Below, piece after piece: positions 2,970-32,799 of a stretch of 64,000 nt of DNA. The translations under genes and the position numbers were made by a program. How positions within the stretch are numbered: position 1 is the first letter of the stretch; each line of letters begins with the position of its first letter. The notes below the pieces were generated by a model. That model made no database searches and was not told the DNA's origin. It saw only the letters and a program-made list of their open reading frames with translations. This DNA comes from Pseudomonadota bacterium (GTDB taxonomy: Bacteria > Pseudomonadota > Alphaproteobacteria > Paracaedibacterales > JAKBAR01). Where the stretch lies: contig JAKBAR010000002.1 of assembly GCA_021808925.1 (NCBI GenBank), positions 5,922-69,921 on the forward strand. Direction: 5' to 3'.

Positions 2970-3038
2970 ACTTGAAAATGAAAAAAGGATACCATTGATA
3001 TAGTATCCTTTTTAATTGTTTTGAAAGCGAAGAGAAAC

Positions 3039-3494
3039 TTATTTCTTTTCCTCAGGCTTTGCTTCTTCAGCCTTAGGCTCTTCTTTTTTCTCTTCAGCCT
3101 TAGCGCCTTCTGCAGCTTTTTCATCTTTTTTAGGTTCTTCTTTTTTTTCTTTTTTCGCTTTAGCAGCCTCAAGCTTTTTAGCAGCAGCCTCAAGTTTCTT
3201 AGCAGCGCCATCAACGTTCATCGCCGCTTGATGGATGGTCCTAAGGCATGTTTGGTCTTCATCTGTCACATGCTTCATTGCCTCTGTCATTTTTGCAACA
3301 GCCTCGTTCCACGCTTTTTCAACGTCAGCTTTTGTCATCTTTTCCTGTTTGTTTTTGTGATGAACAGGCGCATTTATTGCGACAGGCTCGGATGTAGGCT
3401 GATCAGCTGGAACTTCTTCCTGAGTAGCGAATACGGGTGTTACAAGAGTTGCGCTTGTCAAAAGCGCTGCGAGTGTAAAAAGTACTTTTTTCAT
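3039..3494 (-). CDS. secreted Lys/Glu/Ala-rich low-complexity protein (hypothetical)
   Basis: Sec-type signal peptide MKKVLFTLAALLTSATLVTPVFA. K/E/A/P-only C-terminal tail with repeated AAKKLEAA units. The ATG is preceded by an AT-rich leader. Confidence 0.6.
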   Translation of the reverse strand: MKKVLFTLAALLTSATLVTPVFATQEEVPADQPTSEPVAINAPVHHKNKQEKMTKADVEKAWNEAVAKMTEAMKHVTDEDQTCLRTIHQAAMNVDGAAKKLEAAAKKLEAAKAKKEKKEEPKKDEKAAEGAKAEEKKEEPKAEEAKPEEKK

Positions 3495-3593
3495 AAGAAT
3501 TTAATCCTTCAGTTAGTGTTAAATCACATCAATAAAATTTTAACATCTTTTAATCCAAATGGAAGAGCTGTTTTCACACAAATCTTCCAACCT

Positions 3594-4604
3594 ATGCTAA
3601 AAAGGTACAAGAAAATCCTTAATAAATCTTTAACGCCTGTGAGAATTTTAACCGTTATCCTCAATCATGACACCCCAGAACGCTTGGATAAAGGCCTTTT
3701 GCCACTCTTTCAAGAGCTTTGTCCAGAACTCACACGCAATCGCTTTCAAGACCTGATTCGACAAAAAAGCCTTTTGCATAATGATCATATTGTCCAGAAA
3801 AGTAACATAAAAGCCACACAGGGAATCTATAAACTGACACTGGATGACCCCAAACCCTCTCACATTATCCCAAAAGATATCGCGCTTGATATTCTTTATG
3901 AGGATGACGATGTCCTTGTCATTAATAAACAAGCAGACCTCACGGTTCATCCGGGCGCAGGCACAGAGGATGATACCCTTGTGAATGGATTGCTCCACCA
4001 CTTTGGTGATTCATTATCAGGCATCGGCGGGGTTCAGCGCCCGGGGATTGTGCACCGCCTAGATAAGAATACAACAGGGCTTATGGTCATTGCTAAAAAT
4101 GATTATGCGCATCAAAAGCTGAGTGAGCAATTTGCAGATCGCTCCTTGTCGCGCACATATATTGCTTTTGTTTTTGGCATACCTGTTCCAAGGGAGGGAC
4201 GCATTGATAAACCCATAGGCCGTCACCCCACACACCGGCAAAAAATGACCGTTGTGAAGGAACCTTATGGAAAAAATGCGATTACTCTTTATAAAACACT
4301 TCAAAGTTGGGTCGTCGATGAGAAAAAAAACCTCAGTTACGCCAAAGTCCGCTGCACTCTTTTGACTGGCCGCACCCATCAAATTCGTGTGCATATGCAA
4401 AGTATCGGTCACCCCCTCATTGGCGACCCTCTTTATGGCAAAAAAACCTTATCTCAATCCTGGCCAGAGGTGATTTTACACTTTCCCCGTCAAGCCCTTC
4501 ATGCAACAGAAATACGTTTTATCCACCCCCGCTCGGGAGAAACCCTCACCTTCACAGCGCCCCTTCCCTCTGACATGTCCATCCTACAAATGCACAATGA
4601 ATAG
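3594..4604 (+). CDS. rluD: 23S rRNA pseudouridine synthase, RluD-like (RluA family)
   Basis: S4-like N-terminus (ERLDKGL...). Catalytic motif GIVHRLDKNTTGLMVIAK, then TGRTHQIRVH. I placed the start at the ATG at 3594, because the upstream part of the 527-aa track ORF is an antisense shadow of 3039-3494. Confidence 0.8.
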   Translation: MLKRYKKILNKSLTPVRILTVILNHDTPERLDKGLLPLFQELCPELTRNRFQDLIRQKSLLHNDHIVQKSNIKATQGIYKLTLDDPKPSHIIPKDIALDILYEDDDVLVINKQADLTVHPGAGTEDDTLVNGLLHHFGDSLSGIGGVQRPGIVHRLDKNTTGLMVIAKNDYAHQKLSEQFADRSLSRTYIAFVFGIPVPREGRIDKPIGRHPTHRQKMTVVKEPYGKNAITLYKTLQSWVVDEKKNLSYAKVRCTLLTGRTHQIRVHMQSIGHPLIGDPLYGKKTLSQSWPEVILHFPRQALHATEIRFIHPRSGETLTFTAPLPSDMSILQMHNE

Positions 4605-27132: not shown

Positions 27133-28023
27133 ATGACATCAGATTCGCTCAACATTACAACACAACTTGCACAAGAACTTATCCAAGAACAATTTCCAAA
27201 GTTTGCACGCCTCACTCTTCAGCCTGTCGCACGTCAAGGACATGACAATCGCACATTTCGCCTGGGCGAAGAGATGTCTATCCGCCTCCCCACAGCAGAA
27301 TCTTACGCCCTTAAAGTCCCAAAAGAACAAGAGCTGTTACCCTTCCTCGCCCCGCATTTATCCCTTTCGATCCCAAGCCCTCTTTTTATGGGAAAACCCT
27401 CTAAATATTATCCATGGCCCTGGTCCATTTATCAGTGGCTCCCCGGAAAAAGTGCCAATGAATTTACCGCGGTAGAGGATAATTTGTTAGAATCAATCGC
27501 CTATGACCTTGCACAATTCCTAAGAGAACTCCATCGCATTGATCCATCCCATGGGCCAACACCGGGCCTTCATAATTGGTGGCGCGGCGATCATATCCGT
27601 GTTTATGATGCCGAGGCACGCACATATATCGCTGCACTTTCTAAGGTTATCAACAGCGATCAAGCGCTTGATTTATGGGAAAACGCCATGGCAACACAGT
27701 GGAAAAAAGAACCTGTTTGGATTCATGGCGATATGGCTTATGGAAATATTCTTCTTCAGGAAGGAAAACTGACTGGTGTGATTGATTTTGGGGGGATGGG
27801 GATTGGCGATCCGGCGTGTGATCTTGTGATGGCATGGACTTTTTTCAAAGGAAAATCGCGTGAAATCTTTAAACAGTCCCTCAGTTTGGATAACAATACA
27901 TGGCTCAGAGCTAAGGCCTGGGCCCTTTGGAAAGCGGCATTTGAGTTGTGCCAGCTCGACGATACGGAAACTCAAAAGGCTTTTTTACACAAAAAAATTA
28001 TTAGCGATGTATTAACCGCATAG
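27133..28023 (+). CDS. aminoglycoside phosphotransferase (APH) family kinase
   Basis: 296 aa. Brenner/catalytic region VWIHGDMAYGNILL...GVIDFGGMGIGDPACDL. Confidence 0.75.
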   Translation: MTSDSLNITTQLAQELIQEQFPKFARLTLQPVARQGHDNRTFRLGEEMSIRLPTAESYALKVPKEQELLPFLAPHLSLSIPSPLFMGKPSKYYPWPWSIYQWLPGKSANEFTAVEDNLLESIAYDLAQFLRELHRIDPSHGPTPGLHNWWRGDHIRVYDAEARTYIAALSKVINSDQALDLWENAMATQWKKEPVWIHGDMAYGNILLQEGKLTGVIDFGGMGIGDPACDLVMAWTFFKGKSREIFKQSLSLDNNTWLRAKAWALWKAAFELCQLDDTETQKAFLHKKIISDVLTA

Positions 28024-28139: not shown

Positions 28140-29282
28140 ATGTCAACGTCCAATATAAAAAACGATGTCTTCCAAAACATTAGCTTAACTGCTGTGATGA
28201 ACACTGTTTTGGATGGTCTTATTATTATTGATTATTTAGGCATTATTCACGCATTTAATCCCTCTGCTGTACGTATCTTTGGGTATCAACCTAATGAAGT
28301 TCTTGGGAAAAACATTAAAATGTTGATGCCGGAGCCCTACCAAAGCGCTCACGATAGCTATCTTACAAACTACTTAGAATCGCACACGCCAAAAGTTATT
28401 GGTATAGGTCGCGAGGTTAAGGGACGGAGAAAAAATGGTGAGATTTTTCCGATGGACCTTGGCGTTAATGAAATGAATGTAAATGATATGGTGATGTTCG
28501 TGGGCACCGTGCGAGACATCACAGAGCGAAAAGCCTCAGAAGCTTCTATTGAAAGATATATAACAGCCCTTAAACAAAGCAACCAAGAGTTAGATGACTT
28601 TGCGTATATCGCCTCTCATGATCTTAAGGAACCGCTTCGAGGACTTAGTAATAATGCTCTTTTTTTAAAAGAAGATTGGGGGAATAAGCTCAATGAAGAT
28701 GCGATAAAACGCATTGATCGTATGATTTATCTTGCAGGTCGCATGGAACAACTCACCAACGACTTGCTTTATTTCTCCCGCCTTGGAAAGCAGGATTTAG
28801 CCATCAGTGAGGCACCGCTTGAGGATATTGTTCATGATGTAACATCGATGTTAGATGCTGTGATTGTCGAAGGTTCTGTGGAGGTTAAGATTGTTAATCC
28901 TTTGCCAACGGTCACATGCGACATCATACGCATTCGAGAAGTTTTTCGAAACTTGATCACAAATGCAATAAAATACAACGATAAACCTCTTAAAAAAATT
29001 GAAATTGGATCCATGGAAAACAATACGTTTTTTGTGCGCGATAACGGAATTGGCATTAAAGAGTGCTTTTATCACGATATTTTTCGCATCTTTAAACGTT
29101 TGAATACAGAAGACGACGCCACAAAAGGAACGGGCGTTGGCCTGACCTTTGTGAAAAAAATTATTGATCGCCATCATGGCTCTATTTGGGTACAGTCCGA
29201 AATGGGGCAAGGAACAACTTTTTATTTTACACTGCCACAAGGATTAAAAGATGACAGAAACACAACATATTATGCTCATTGA
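28140..29282 (+). CDS. sensor histidine kinase with a FixL-type (heme-binding) PAS domain
   Basis: The PAS core KMLMPEPYQSAHDSYLTNY..VIGIGREVKGRRKNGEIFPMDLGVNEM..FVGTVRDITE matches the remembered FixL heme-PAS, including the proximal His. H-box IASHDLKEPLRG. HATPase N box, DNGIGI and GTGVGLTFVKKI. Confidence 0.75.
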   Translation: MSTSNIKNDVFQNISLTAVMNTVLDGLIIIDYLGIIHAFNPSAVRIFGYQPNEVLGKNIKMLMPEPYQSAHDSYLTNYLESHTPKVIGIGREVKGRRKNGEIFPMDLGVNEMNVNDMVMFVGTVRDITERKASEASIERYITALKQSNQELDDFAYIASHDLKEPLRGLSNNALFLKEDWGNKLNEDAIKRIDRMIYLAGRMEQLTNDLLYFSRLGKQDLAISEAPLEDIVHDVTSMLDAVIVEGSVEVKIVNPLPTVTCDIIRIREVFRNLITNAIKYNDKPLKKIEIGSMENNTFFVRDNGIGIKECFYHDIFRIFKRLNTEDDATKGTGVGLTFVKKIIDRHHGSIWVQSEMGQGTTFYFTLPQGLKDDRNTTYYAH

Positions 29283-29676
29283 AGACAATAAAGATGACTG
29301 CGAAGCTATTATTCGTGGGTTTCAGTCCTGTGATTGTTTATACCCCCTTAAATGGTTTAAGGATTCGGATGATGCACTTGCCTCTTTAATTGAAAATGAA
29401 GAAGACATCCCTCTTTTTATCCTTCTTGATCTCAATCTTCCTGGGATGGACGGTCGATCTTTTCTCAAGTATATCAAAAACAATAAACAACTAAGGGGCA
29501 TTCCTGTCATTGTTTTGACAACATCTTCGGATCACAAAGATGTTCAGTATTGCTATGAGCACGGTGTCAGTGCGTATATTCAAAAACCTGTGAATTTTTA
29601 CCAAATGAAAAATATCTGTCATTCTATCCAAGACTATTGGTTAAACACCTGCCTTCTTCCAGAAAGGGCTCACTAA
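29251..29676 (+). CDS. stand-alone receiver-domain response regulator (Cys-rich)
   Basis: 141 aa with IMLIEDNKDD, a phospho-acceptor context FILLDLNLPGMDG, VIVLTTS and YIQKP. No output domain. Overlaps the kinase gene by 32 nt. Confidence 0.85.
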   Translation: MTETQHIMLIEDNKDDCEAIIRGFQSCDCLYPLKWFKDSDDALASLIENEEDIPLFILLDLNLPGMDGRSFLKYIKNNKQLRGIPVIVLTTSSDHKDVQYCYEHGVSAYIQKPVNFYQMKNICHSIQDYWLNTCLLPERAH

Positions 29677-30743
29677 TGGATCAAAAGGGGGAGAGTGATA
29701 TTAAACTGGCTTCCCCCTTTTTTAGGACGCATCACGTCAATTTGCCCGCCGTGTTGATCAACAATTGCTTTCACAATCGCTAGACCAAGGCCTGTCCCCT
29801 CTGCTTCGGACTTGTTCGGAACACGGTAGAAAGGGTCAAAAATCTTTTTACTGACACTTTTGGGAATACCAATACCATTATCCCTGATCGAAAGAGTAAC
29901 TGTATTTTTTTCCATCAATGCCTCCACAAAAACTTCAGGTGTCACAAGGCAGTACTTCAGCGCATTGGATAAAATATTTTGAAAGAGCTGCACAAGGGCC
30001 ACTTTTGACCCATAAATAGGCGGAAAAGACGTTGGAAGATGAATCATCGCTTTTTTTTCCTGAATAGGCATTTCCAAAAGGGCCACGGATTTTTTTATAA
30101 TCTCCATAAGATCAACAGGTTCTCTGTCCTCAAAGCTACGCCCAGACTCTGCATAGACTAACAATTTATCAATAAATTCGACGAGAAACGCCGCATCTTC
30201 GGTAATATAATTGATGTAAGCCTCGCTTTTTTGAGGTTTTTTTTGAGCCAGCATCGCATAAGAGCGAATACGCCCTATGGGGTTTTTAAGATCGTGCGCC
30301 AATGTATGCGCAAACAGCAAAAGCTCCTTCTGTTTTGCCTGCTCCCTTTTTTTTTGTCGATGAGAAGCACGCGCTTTTTGAATTGATTTTTTCAAAATAT
30401 TCGCCGTTAAACCATCCTTTTTGATATAGTCTGAGACATTAAGCTGCATAAAATTCACAGCAACGCTCTCATCGCCCTGCCCTGTCAAAACAATAATGGG
30501 AGCATCAAGTATGATGTTTTCTTGATGCAATTTTCTTAAAAAATCCATGCCATTCATGCCAGGCATATGGTAATCCAACAACATAATATCAAAAGGGTGA
30601 TTTTCTTTTGAAAGAGCCCCCAAAGCCTCCTCAGCTGACGCATAGTGCGCAATCGACACAGGGCCTACCTTCTGCAATAAGCGCTCATAAAGACACGCAT
30701 CATCCGGCGAATCGTCGATAATCAGAGCTTTTGATATATCCAT
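29673..30743 (-). CDS. hybrid receiver-histidine kinase (N-terminal REC, then HisKA and HATPase)
   Basis: 356 aa. REC (ALIIDDSPDD...IMLLDYHMPGMNG...IIVLTG). H-box LAHDLKNPIGRI. HATPase (RDNGIGIP, GTGLGLAIVKAIV). Confidence 0.85.
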   Translation of the reverse strand: MDISKALIIDDSPDDACLYERLLQKVGPVSIAHYASAEEALGALSKENHPFDIMLLDYHMPGMNGMDFLRKLHQENIILDAPIIVLTGQGDESVAVNFMQLNVSDYIKKDGLTANILKKSIQKARASHRQKKREQAKQKELLLFAHTLAHDLKNPIGRIRSYAMLAQKKPQKSEAYINYITEDAAFLVEFIDKLLVYAESGRSFEDREPVDLMEIIKKSVALLEMPIQEKKAMIHLPTSFPPIYGSKVALVQLFQNILSNALKYCLVTPEVFVEALMEKNTVTLSIRDNGIGIPKSVSKKIFDPFYRVPNKSEAEGTGLGLAIVKAIVDQHGGQIDVMRPKKGGSQFNITLPLLIH

Positions 30744-30771
30744 TGTGAAACTTTCTTTTGTTTATTGCGTC

Positions 30772-31236
30772 TCAAGATCGATTGAAAAGAAAATTTTCGA
30801 AAGACTCCCCATCCAACGGTTTTTCAAAAAAAGCATGGGCGTCAAGTTGATTAACGTGGGAAATATTTTTGTAATTGCTCATGGAAGAATGAATCACAAC
30901 GGGAATTTCCTTTGTTTGAAGAAGGCCCTTGAGGCGCTGTAAAACCATTTTTCCATTCATACTCGGCATTACAAGATCGAGAATGATAATATCAGGCTTC
31001 TCCTTTCTTTCAAGATGTTTCAATGCTTCATGCGCATCTGTGTAGGAAGAGAAAGTAAAATTAGCCCGACACTCTGTTTTTAAAATTTCTTTGACGAGAT
31101 TAATATCTTTTTTGCTGTCATCAATCATCATGACGTGAATGTTTCTATTATTCGTTGTAACCTCATCACTAAAACGCATACTTTTAAATGAGTAGTACTT
31201 TGGATGATTATATGACGGTTGCGTAGAGTTCCACAT
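30772..31236 (-). CDS. stand-alone receiver-domain response regulator
   Basis: 154 aa with VMMIDDSKKD, IIILDLVMPSMNG, VVIHSS and FFEKP. No output domain. The start may be an internal ATG (MRFSDE...). Confidence 0.8.
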   Translation of the reverse strand: MWNSTQPSYNHPKYYSFKSMRFSDEVTTNNRNIHVMMIDDSKKDINLVKEILKTECRANFTFSSYTDAHEALKHLERKEKPDIIILDLVMPSMNGKMVLQRLKGLLQTKEIPVVIHSSMSNYKNISHVNQLDAHAFFEKPLDGESFENFLFNRS

Positions 31237-31407: not shown

Positions 31408-31866
31408 TTAAATCGTCTCAGGCACAAGGCGTAGTGCCATACTAAAGTAAACACCATCATTCAATTGCGCCCTGCGGTAATCAAAGCTTTCAAAGTGAAT
31501 CCCTGGCAACGGTTTTGTCAGCGTACTTTTCATTGCGCTTAGGTCTGCATTTTGAATATACGTCCCAAACGTCGTGTTTTTGTCAAGTTTTCCCGTTGTA
31601 TCTTCAAAGCTAAAGTAGCGAATCTTGTATTTTTGATGATTAATCGTAATGATTTTGCCCACAATCGCTTTGTCCACAAAAGCATTTGATTGGCTCATTT
31701 CGATTTCTTTGCAGGCTGTGATCAGTTGTTGCAGCATAAGCGCCCCCTCTTGAGTATCGATCACAACACGTTGAGGCTTTGTCTCCGCACACACCGTGTT
31801 CATAACGGGAAAAGTAACAAGGGATAACAGAATAAATAGTTTGAGCATAGTCACACTTTCTTTCAA
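31408..31866 (-). CDS. secreted hypothetical protein
   Basis: 152 aa with a signal-peptide-like LKLFILLSLVTFPVMNTVCA. The start may be the ATG at 31848. Confidence 0.55.
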   Translation of the reverse strand: MKESVTMLKLFILLSLVTFPVMNTVCAETKPQRVVIDTQEGALMLQQLITACKEIEMSQSNAFVDKAIVGKIITINHQKYKIRYFSFEDTTGKLDKNTTFGTYIQNADLSAMKSTLTKPLPGIHFESFDYRRAQLNDGVYFSMALRLVPETI

Positions 31867-31905: not shown

Positions 31906-32799
31906 TCAAAAACCCTCCAGCGTATTTAAAATAGCTGTGGTTTTTTCAAAATACGTCGTAGGCAGCTGGTCTTCCTCGGCCCAAACCCAAGCAAGCACCG
32001 CTTGCACAAAACACCAATCAAGGATTCGTTGATAAGGCAATTCAAGGAGCTCAGCAAAGCGCGTGACGCGACCCTGAATACTATTTGGCGCATCTACGTG
32101 ATGCAGTAATTCTGGTATGGGATTGCGGATAAAAGCGGCAACCTCAAAGGCCCTCTCACCGATTACCCCTTTTGGATCGATCACCACCCAATCATTCCCC
32201 TGCCACAGAATATTATCATGATGCAAATCGCCATGCAGGAGGGTATCTGCACCACGTGTTTGCAATAAAAAATCGCGCATTTTTTTTGCTTTTTGAAGGG
32301 AACTCTCTGGGATACATGTTGCTGTGTCCAAGGCCTTCAGCCAATCTCTGATATGGGGGAAAGGATGATTTTGAGGAATCGCAGACCTATGCAAACGCTG
32401 CATAAGAGAACAGGCAATCTGGATGCTTTCCTCATCTTTGTGCGGAAAAAAAGACTTAAGCGACGTTCCAGGCACAGCACGCTCGAGCAAGAGCATGCCC
32501 GGCTCCTCGGCAATAGCAGTCACAGTTCCACGATCTTTAAAACACCGAAGAGCCATGGCTTCTCTTGCAAGACCCGCCGTATCCATACTTCGTTTTAAAA
32601 TGACAGGCACCCCTTTTTGAAAACCTGAGGCTACATAATTGTAGGTTAGAGAAGGGAACGGTGTAAGCTCTGTCAGATTGTATTTTAGAGCCATGTCACG
32701 CAGAAAACCCGGGAGCTCCTCTAACCACTTCGCGCCCTCTTTGCCATATATTTTTTCTATCGTCGTCTCAAAAGAAACGACGGATGTGCTTTTAGTCAT
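31906..32799 (-). CDS. APH(6)/streptomycin-kinase-like phosphotransferase (aminoglycoside/hydroxyurea resistance kinase family)
   Basis: 297 aa. Catalytic region LLHGDLHHDNILWQGNDWVVIDPKG. Its start overlaps the EamA stop by 4 nt. Confidence 0.65.
   Translation of the reverse strand: MTKSTSVVSFETTIEKIYGKEGAKWLEELPGFLRDMALKYNLTELTPFPSLTYNYVASGFQKGVPVILKRSMDTAGLAREAMALRCFKDRGTVTAIAEEPGMLLLERAVPGTSLKSFFPHKDEESIQIACSLMQRLHRSAIPQNHPFPHIRDWLKALDTATCIPESSLQKAKKMRDFLLQTRGADTLLHGDLHHDNILWQGNDWVVIDPKGVIGERAFEVAAFIRNPIPELLHHVDAPNSIQGRVTRFAELLELPYQRILDWCFVQAVLAWVWAEEDQLPTTYFEKTTAILNTLEGF

Follow-up and report, generated by a model that had tools for sequence, protein, structure and literature searches.

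A predicted heme-PAS sensor kinase in a phytochrome-type signaling cassette of an alphaproteobacterial genome

Introduction

What does a kinase with a FixL-like sensor domain signal to, when no FixJ is encoded beside it? The question is raised by a cluster of four genes in contig JAKBAR010000002.1, from an alphaproteobacterium of the Paracaedibacterales; the whole stretch of DNA analyzed, 64,000 nucleotides (64 kb) long, is referred to below as the window. The genes (Table 1) encode a predicted heme-PAS kinase (HK1), two receiver-only proteins (RR1 and RR2), and a REC-HisKA-HATPase_c kinase (HK2). The reading favored here, with a probability of roughly 0.55, is that a cytoplasmic heme-based gas or redox sensor drives a branched, two-tier kinase cascade: HK1 would phosphorylate both RR1 and the receiver (REC) domain of HK2, and HK2 would in turn phosphorylate RR2.

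An initial annotation, made from the sequence alone, had described the cluster as a FixL-type kinase at the head of an unbranched relay, with wiring thought to be undescribed. The wiring turns out to be that of a widespread phytochrome-type cassette (Cph1/Rcp1-like; BphP2/3-LhfD-LhfE, PMC6879726; LvrA-LvrB, PMC13269768), present in hundreds of bacterial species; the cluster is one member of it, not a one-off. The components and the cascade logic are already known, and the heme-PAS version is common in genomes, but no experimental characterization appears to exist for a heme-PAS input combined with a receiver-only end point. Nothing on a FixL-like sensor with phytochrome-type wiring was found in the literature searched, which is no proof of absence.

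HK1 Transmitter and Relation to FixL

The transmitter of HK1 had been noted as unlike that of FixL, with an ASHDLKEPLRG H-box. The motif is present, and the best matches are to bacteriophytochrome kinases: residues 132-368 align with bacteriophytochromes 8uph and 9ys3 at E = 2e-44 and with the RpBphP2 kinase domain (8f71) at E = 7e-39, and score 155 bits against bacteriophytochromes vs. 86 bits for the FixL-derived kinase of the YF1 chimera (4gcz). The kinase core of an AlphaFold2 model of HK1 fits 8f71 best (TM 0.86). His160 and the N-, G1-, and G2-boxes are intact, and invariant in 26 homologues. The best NCBIfam model for HK1 is the FixL equivalog NF041777, but the score of 167.9 bits does not reach its curated cut-off of 850.

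A FixJ-type regulator (REC-LuxR, with a helix-turn-helix, HTH) is found neither in the cluster nor elsewhere in the window, as the initial annotation had reported for the cluster, and no REC-HTH partner adjoins the kinase in 80 related loci. (Here and below, linkage counts refer to the best-scoring 80 of the at least 568 HK1-type loci confirmed in species-representative genomes, a set rich in closely related Rhizobium and with mechanically called open reading frames, ORFs; the homologous loci discussed individually carry the labels L003, L012, L016, L037, L044, L050, L082, L083, and L084.) Given the score below cut-off, the bacteriophytochrome-type transmitter, and the missing FixJ, HK1 is, on the evidence of its sequence, not a FixL orthologue: the description “FixL-type” holds for the sensor domain but not for the whole protein. 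The automated label “sensor kinase FixL, LuxR family” is misleading for such kinases, which have no FixJ partner.

Several apparent FixJ candidates were considered and rejected. The idea that FixJ was lost here yet kept in relatives fails, no FixJ-type partner being present in any locus examined. The REC proteins of ~220 amino acids (aa) in L037 and L044 adjoin other kinases, a protein of similar size in L050 is a truncated REC-HisKA, and the long “RR1” ORFs of Rhizobium are start-codon over-extensions. A LuxR-family neighbor in Rhizobium is SdiA/TraR-like, of quorum-sensing type, and without a receiver domain. In L016 (Rhizobium binxianense), the genes upstream of the FixL-like kinase encode a 238-aa sensorless HisKA-HATPase, a 145-aa weak REC-like protein, a 236-aa SdiA/TraR-like LuxR regulator, and a 125-aa receiver-only protein, an upstream layout common to most Rhizobium loci.

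Partner Proteins

The best solved relatives of RR1 are RcpB (1k66, 2e-23), RcpA (5e-21), and Rcp1 (3e-19), followed by bacteriophytochrome response regulators (BRRs; 5brj, 5ic5) and R. palustris RPA3017 (4zyl, 4e-15). The alignment spans the C-terminal YWL..LPE extension typical of phytochrome response regulators, and the acidic pocket, acceptor Asp, Thr, and Lys are all intact; RR1 is classed by these comparisons as a receiver-only phytochrome response regulator of the Rcp type. In 72 of the 80 loci, the gene that directly follows the kinase is of this type.

HK2 (residues 5-352) aligns over its full length with Leptospira LvrB (8vc9), giving a REC-DHp-CA arrangement with Asp57 as acceptor and His150 as phospho-His. 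The acceptor Asp is kept in 51, and the His in all, of 52 Rec-kinases from related loci. Spacing between the two residues is 91 in 41 of these proteins and 98 in three, with 93 or 100 as further variants, and linker insertions are of exactly 7 or 28 residues. The spacing of 93 in HK2 was considered as a breach of the heptad rule and rejected: its extra two residues lie in the REC α3-β4 loop, inside the receiver fold and not in the linker. By alignment, HK2 has the structure of a Rec-controlled kinase of the LvrB/LhfE type, heptad-register signaling helix included. In kinases such as LvrB, an upstream kinase phosphorylates the N-terminal Rec; a signaling helix of heptad repeats then closes, and the catalytic domain is set free (PMC13269768).

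Variation on this plan is found among the relatives. Thirty-four of 51 Rec-kinases from related loci carry an extra C-terminal REC. In L012, the kinase-adjacent receiver of the HK2 orthologue has Glu in place of the acceptor Asp, and an additional N-terminal receiver has been gained; this Glu could be a natural phosphomimic.

Which of the receivers might share a kinase? Five α1 positions were compared, which we take to be the specificity positions equivalent to Spo0F 14, 15, 18, 21, and 22 in the Spo0F/HK853 specificity literature. By family consensus, RR1 has DDARA at these positions and the N-terminal REC of the Rec-kinases DDVRI, with Thr as the β4 switch residue in both; the C-terminal REC of the Rec-kinases has ADLIK and RR2 has KDL(D/E)L, both with Ser as the switch residue. 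RR1 and the HK2 REC look like substrates of one kinase, and RR2 looks like the counterpart of the Rec-kinase C-terminal REC, split off as a separate protein.

Route of Signaling

In the route proposed, HK1 autophosphorylation at His160 would depend on whether a heme, bound through His71 of the PAS domain, is liganded or on how it is oxidized; Arg91 is placed such that it could stabilize bound O2. HK1 would then phosphorylate two receivers with matching specificity surfaces, RR1 and, in parallel, the N-terminal REC of HK2 (at Asp57). RR1, translationally coupled to HK1, would act as a phosphate sink or modulator, like LhfD in R. palustris. Phosphorylation of Asp57 would close the heptad-register signaling helix of HK2, as in LvrB, releasing the catalytic domain and allowing autophosphorylation at His150, and HK2 would pass phosphate to the co-transcribed RR2 at Asp87. 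Since RR2 has no output domain of its own, its output would be by protein-protein contact or by hand-over to an unlinked partner.

Three lines of evidence favor this branched cascade: the specificity positions, the precedent of LvrB, and the genetics of the Lhf system. In R. palustris, the Rcp-type LhfD, described as a sink, takes phosphate from bacteriophytochromes yet can be dispensed with, while the REC-kinase LhfE is required and acts downstream of the sensor kinases (PMC6879726).

The order first suggested for the cluster, a linear HK to REC to second HK to REC relay, is unlikely. In such a relay HK1 would phosphorylate RR1 only, phosphorylated RR1 would activate HK2 by binding or by back-transfer to His150, and HK2 would phosphorylate RR2. 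In its favor, RR1 is the most tightly linked partner, both in its overlap with HK1 and in its position directly downstream across the related loci, and Rcp-type receivers are demonstrated phospho-acceptors of phytochrome kinases (PMC6879726). Receivers, however, are not known to phosphorylate one another, and Pfam found no Hpt domain in the four proteins (a scan that did not extend to the window's other small ORFs), so the chain would need an Asp-to-Asp or Asp-to-His step that nothing in the cluster supports. HK2 has its own intact acceptor Asp, as do nearly all its relatives, RR1 shares its specificity signature with the HK2 REC, and the homologous LhfD is dispensable for output; all three fit branched transfer better.

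Sensor Domain

The case for a heme sensor at the head of the branched cascade rests on the PAS domain of HK1 (aa ~13-135), which had been likened to that of rhizobial FixL. The comparison stands up well: the quoted core is found verbatim in HK1, and residues 15-138 align without gaps on the FixL heme domain from Bradyrhizobium japonicum (BjFixL; 1dp6) at E = 5e-30. With a numbering offset of 129 residues, His71 falls on His200, the proximal heme ligand, and Arg91 on Arg220, the O2-binding (distal) Arg of the GIGR motif. On the distal side, hydrophobic Leu236 is retained as Leu107, and Ile238 and Ile215 are conservatively changed to Val109 and Val86; two heme propionate contacts are substituted, Arg206 by Asn77 and His214 by Lys85. 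The AlphaFold2 model (mean predicted local distance difference test score 80.5, about 90 in the PAS core) superposes on the FixL PAS 8js5 at 2.1-2.2 Å (138 columns, 38% identical).

Across 26 diverse HK1 homologues, the alignment shows no change at His71, Arg91, Tyr74, Tyr78, or Leu107, and His and Arg are both kept in 67 of the 85 FixL-like PAS domains of the related loci. The conservation of His71 and Arg91, the gapless BjFixL alignment, and the fold superposition together make heme binding by HK1 a strong inference, and conservation of the Arg makes O2 plausible as its physiological ligand.

A FixL fold need not report O2, however: its heme iron might instead respond to NO, CO, or redox state, or the domain might lack heme. 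In favor of this, His or Arg has been lost in 18 of the 85 related domains, implying that some paralogues use the fold heme-free, and the propionate contacts of HK1 differ from those of FixL. For HK1 itself, such a role is quite unlikely: His71, Arg91, and the hydrophobic distal residues Leu107, Val109, and Val86 are all kept, and Lys85 retains a positive charge for the propionate.

HK1 appears in public gene calls at two lengths, 361 aa (with Met20 as the start) and 380 aa. The longer version is more likely, as the FixL alignment starts at residue 15 and a GGAG precedes the ATG at 28140.

Distribution and Linkage

The HK1 family comprises 7321 proteins at E < 1e-20, many of which may match through the transmitter alone. 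Among the 80 loci, a Rec-kinase lies within 4 kb of the sensor kinase in 58, and sensor kinase, RR1, and Rec-kinase occur as a trio in 57; the Rec-kinase is co-directional with the sensor kinase in 56 loci and on the opposite strand in two (L003 and L012). Carriers include ~25 Rhizobium species, Sphingomonadales, Pseudoalteromonas, Thalassotalea, Opitutaceae, Planctomycetota, metagenome-assembled genomes of Rickettsiales, and others. The FixL-like version of the PAS is present in most of the 80 loci, but the same cassette also follows kinases without it, and is therefore independent of sensor type.

Is the exact set of four genes more than a local accident? A survey of its distribution found it in four other genomes, convergent in L003, L012, and L082 and divergent in L083, which supports a conserved unit. 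Since the neighboring genes differ in each of these loci and in the window, the recurrence marks the two operons as a functional unit. The L082 cassette adjoins gene-transfer-agent or phage-tail-like genes (GTA_TIM, Phage_BR0599, tail completion, lysozyme).

That HK1-RR1 and HK2-RR2 are independent pairs and merely neighbors, with another kinase feeding the HK2 receiver, is highly unlikely: the opposite strands of the pairs, hence separate transcription units, would allow it, as would L084, where RR2 and a Rec-kinase occur without a visible HK1 (though the contig ends there), but the Rec-kinase directly follows RR1 in the same direction in 56 loci from several phyla, and the four genes keep together in at least five different chromosomal contexts.

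Some points nevertheless weigh against the branched cascade. The comparisons show the identity of the domains, the conservation of catalytic and heme residues, the heptad register of the linker, and the conserved linkage of the genes; we infer the rest, namely heme binding, O2 as what it binds, each transfer of phosphate, and what RR2 does. The specificity comparison covers a handful of positions from the Spo0F and HK853 literature, in loci that include many closely related Rhizobium. The HK1-RR1 and HK2-RR2 operons are co-located, with overlapping stops and no terminator, but are not co-transcribed. The replacement of Arg206 by Asn77 and of His214 by Lys85 may make ligand affinity and signaling differ from those of FixL. 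In the Lhf system itself, the route from the sensor kinases to LhfE is explicitly unresolved (PMC6879726).

RR2 and Its Target

RR2 has the acceptor set Asp87, Ser117, and Lys139, and its gene precedes that of HK2 within their shared operon. It is 43-47% identical to its orthologues in L003 and L012; the clade as a whole comprises 12 proteins at E < 1e-8, all REC-only, and in the loci examined the gene always adjoins a Rec-kinase. The first ~30 aa show no conservation, and translation may therefore start further downstream.

The cluster had been described as having no output domain. This is correct for the window, where none of the four proteins has a Pfam domain for DNA binding or enzymatic output, but it is not a general rule: 10 of the 80 loci include a REC-GGDEF or REC-GGDEF-EAL protein, which points to a cyclic di-GMP (c-di-GMP) output in some lineages.

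One possibility, which must be regarded as a long shot, is that RR2 acts on a cellular machine and not on transcription, giving a transcription-independent O2 response in which the heme-PAS kinase would work through the Rec-kinase as an amplifier; if so, the RR1 branch would set the gain of the response. In L084, an RR2-like gene is followed by a frameshifted Rec-kinase, divergent from fliG and genes for two unannotated proteins (533 and 597 aa). The fliG gene at this single locus is a hint that RR2 might target the flagellar switch, with motility as the output; a cell-cycle or c-di-GMP enzyme could also be the target.

Genomic Setting

The four ORFs lie where the initial annotation had placed them (Table 1), and their two overlaps are also as it described: the start of RR1 is inside the end of HK1, by 32 nt in the ORF coordinates, and the convergent RR1 and HK2 ORFs share 4 bp (29673-29676) when the sequence is read. 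No terminator-like element was seen between the latter two; promoter and terminator scans of the cluster gave background-level results and were not used. The 64-kb window contains no further REC or kinase gene.

Table 1. Cluster genes and other features of the window, with homologous loci cited in the text (coordinates of the latter are within each locus).
Feature	Coordinates	Strand	Description
HK1	28140-29282	+	380 aa; soluble sensor histidine kinase; Pfam PAS + HisKA + HATPase_c
RR1	29251-29676	+	141 aa; Pfam Response_reg alone
HK2	29673-30743	-	356 aa; Pfam Response_reg + HisKA + HATPase_c; no other sensor domain
RR2	30772-31236	-	154 aa; Pfam Response_reg alone
APH-family phosphotransferase gene	27133-28023	+	
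APH-family phosphotransferase gene	31906-32799	-	
ORF directly upstream of RR2	31408-31866	-	152 aa; hydrophobic, signal-peptide-like N-terminus; no Pfam match
Further ORF	3021-4604	+	527 aa; unusual N-terminal Phe/Leu-rich low-complexity stretch (MKAKRNLFLFLRLCFFSLRLFFFLFSL...)
HK2 orthologue	L012:6999-8471	-	
Region upstream of FixL-like kinase	L016:2004-4813		
Cassette and adjoining genes	L082:1-6024		
RR2-like gene and neighbors	L084:1-6803		

The cassette is flanked by the two APH-family genes, and an APH gene is also found ~3 kb from the L083 cassette. GC content is 0.39 over 28-32 kb vs. ~0.44 in the flanks. The APH genes and the GC dip may reflect horizontal acquisition of the cassette. 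A megablast search of plasmids with the cluster as query gave no match. Neighboring genes include Hfq-HflX, LptC, CtaA, M16 peptidases, and nuo; like the nearest related loci, they fit an uncultured lineage resembling the alphaproteobacteria.

Implications

The FixL heme-PAS is used far beyond FixL/FixJ: it is one of several exchangeable inputs to a conserved cassette, made up of sensor kinase, Rcp-type receiver, and Rec-kinase, whose range takes in Alphaproteobacteria, Gammaproteobacteria, Planctomycetota, Verrucomicrobiota, and further phyla. Compared with the phytochrome systems, the heme version, small, soluble, and of four proteins, might be easier to reconstitute in vitro, with its input set by O2, CO, or NO instead of light.

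Comparison with Known Systems

Four known systems resemble the cluster in part. FixL/FixJ (BjFixL, RmFixL) shares the heme-PAS domain, with its proximal His, distal Arg, and hydrophobic distal pocket; it differs in the class of the transmitter, which in HK1 is that of the bacteriophytochromes, in having FixJ as partner, and in the residues at BjFixL R206 and H214, which are N and K in HK1. The Leptospira LvrA-LvrB-LvrC system (PMC13269768) matches HK2 end to end in the architecture of LvrB, including the heptad-register linker, and likewise encodes the upstream sensor kinase alongside. LvrA, however, is a hybrid kinase with its own receiver, there is no Rcp-type single-domain receiver, and LvrC is a Rec-anti-sigma factor, whereas RR2 is a receiver only.

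Cph1/Rcp1 and the bacteriophytochrome-BRR pairs have the same order, in which a phytochrome-class transmitter comes first and, immediately after it, a receiver-only regulator (~145 aa, extended at its C-terminus), but HK1 has a heme-PAS input instead of their GAF/PHY photosensory module. The Lhf system of R. palustris (RpBphP2/RpBphP3, LhfD or Rpa3017, LhfE or Rpa3018, and LhfA; PMC6879726) has the same three signaling modules, homologous in sequence, with a REC and kinase protein of ~40 kDa downstream. Its sensors use a biliverdin-binding photosensory core where HK1 would use a heme-PAS; LhfA has an HTH, which RR2 does not; and its genes are co-directional, while in the window the Rec-kinase operon converges on that of the sensor kinase.

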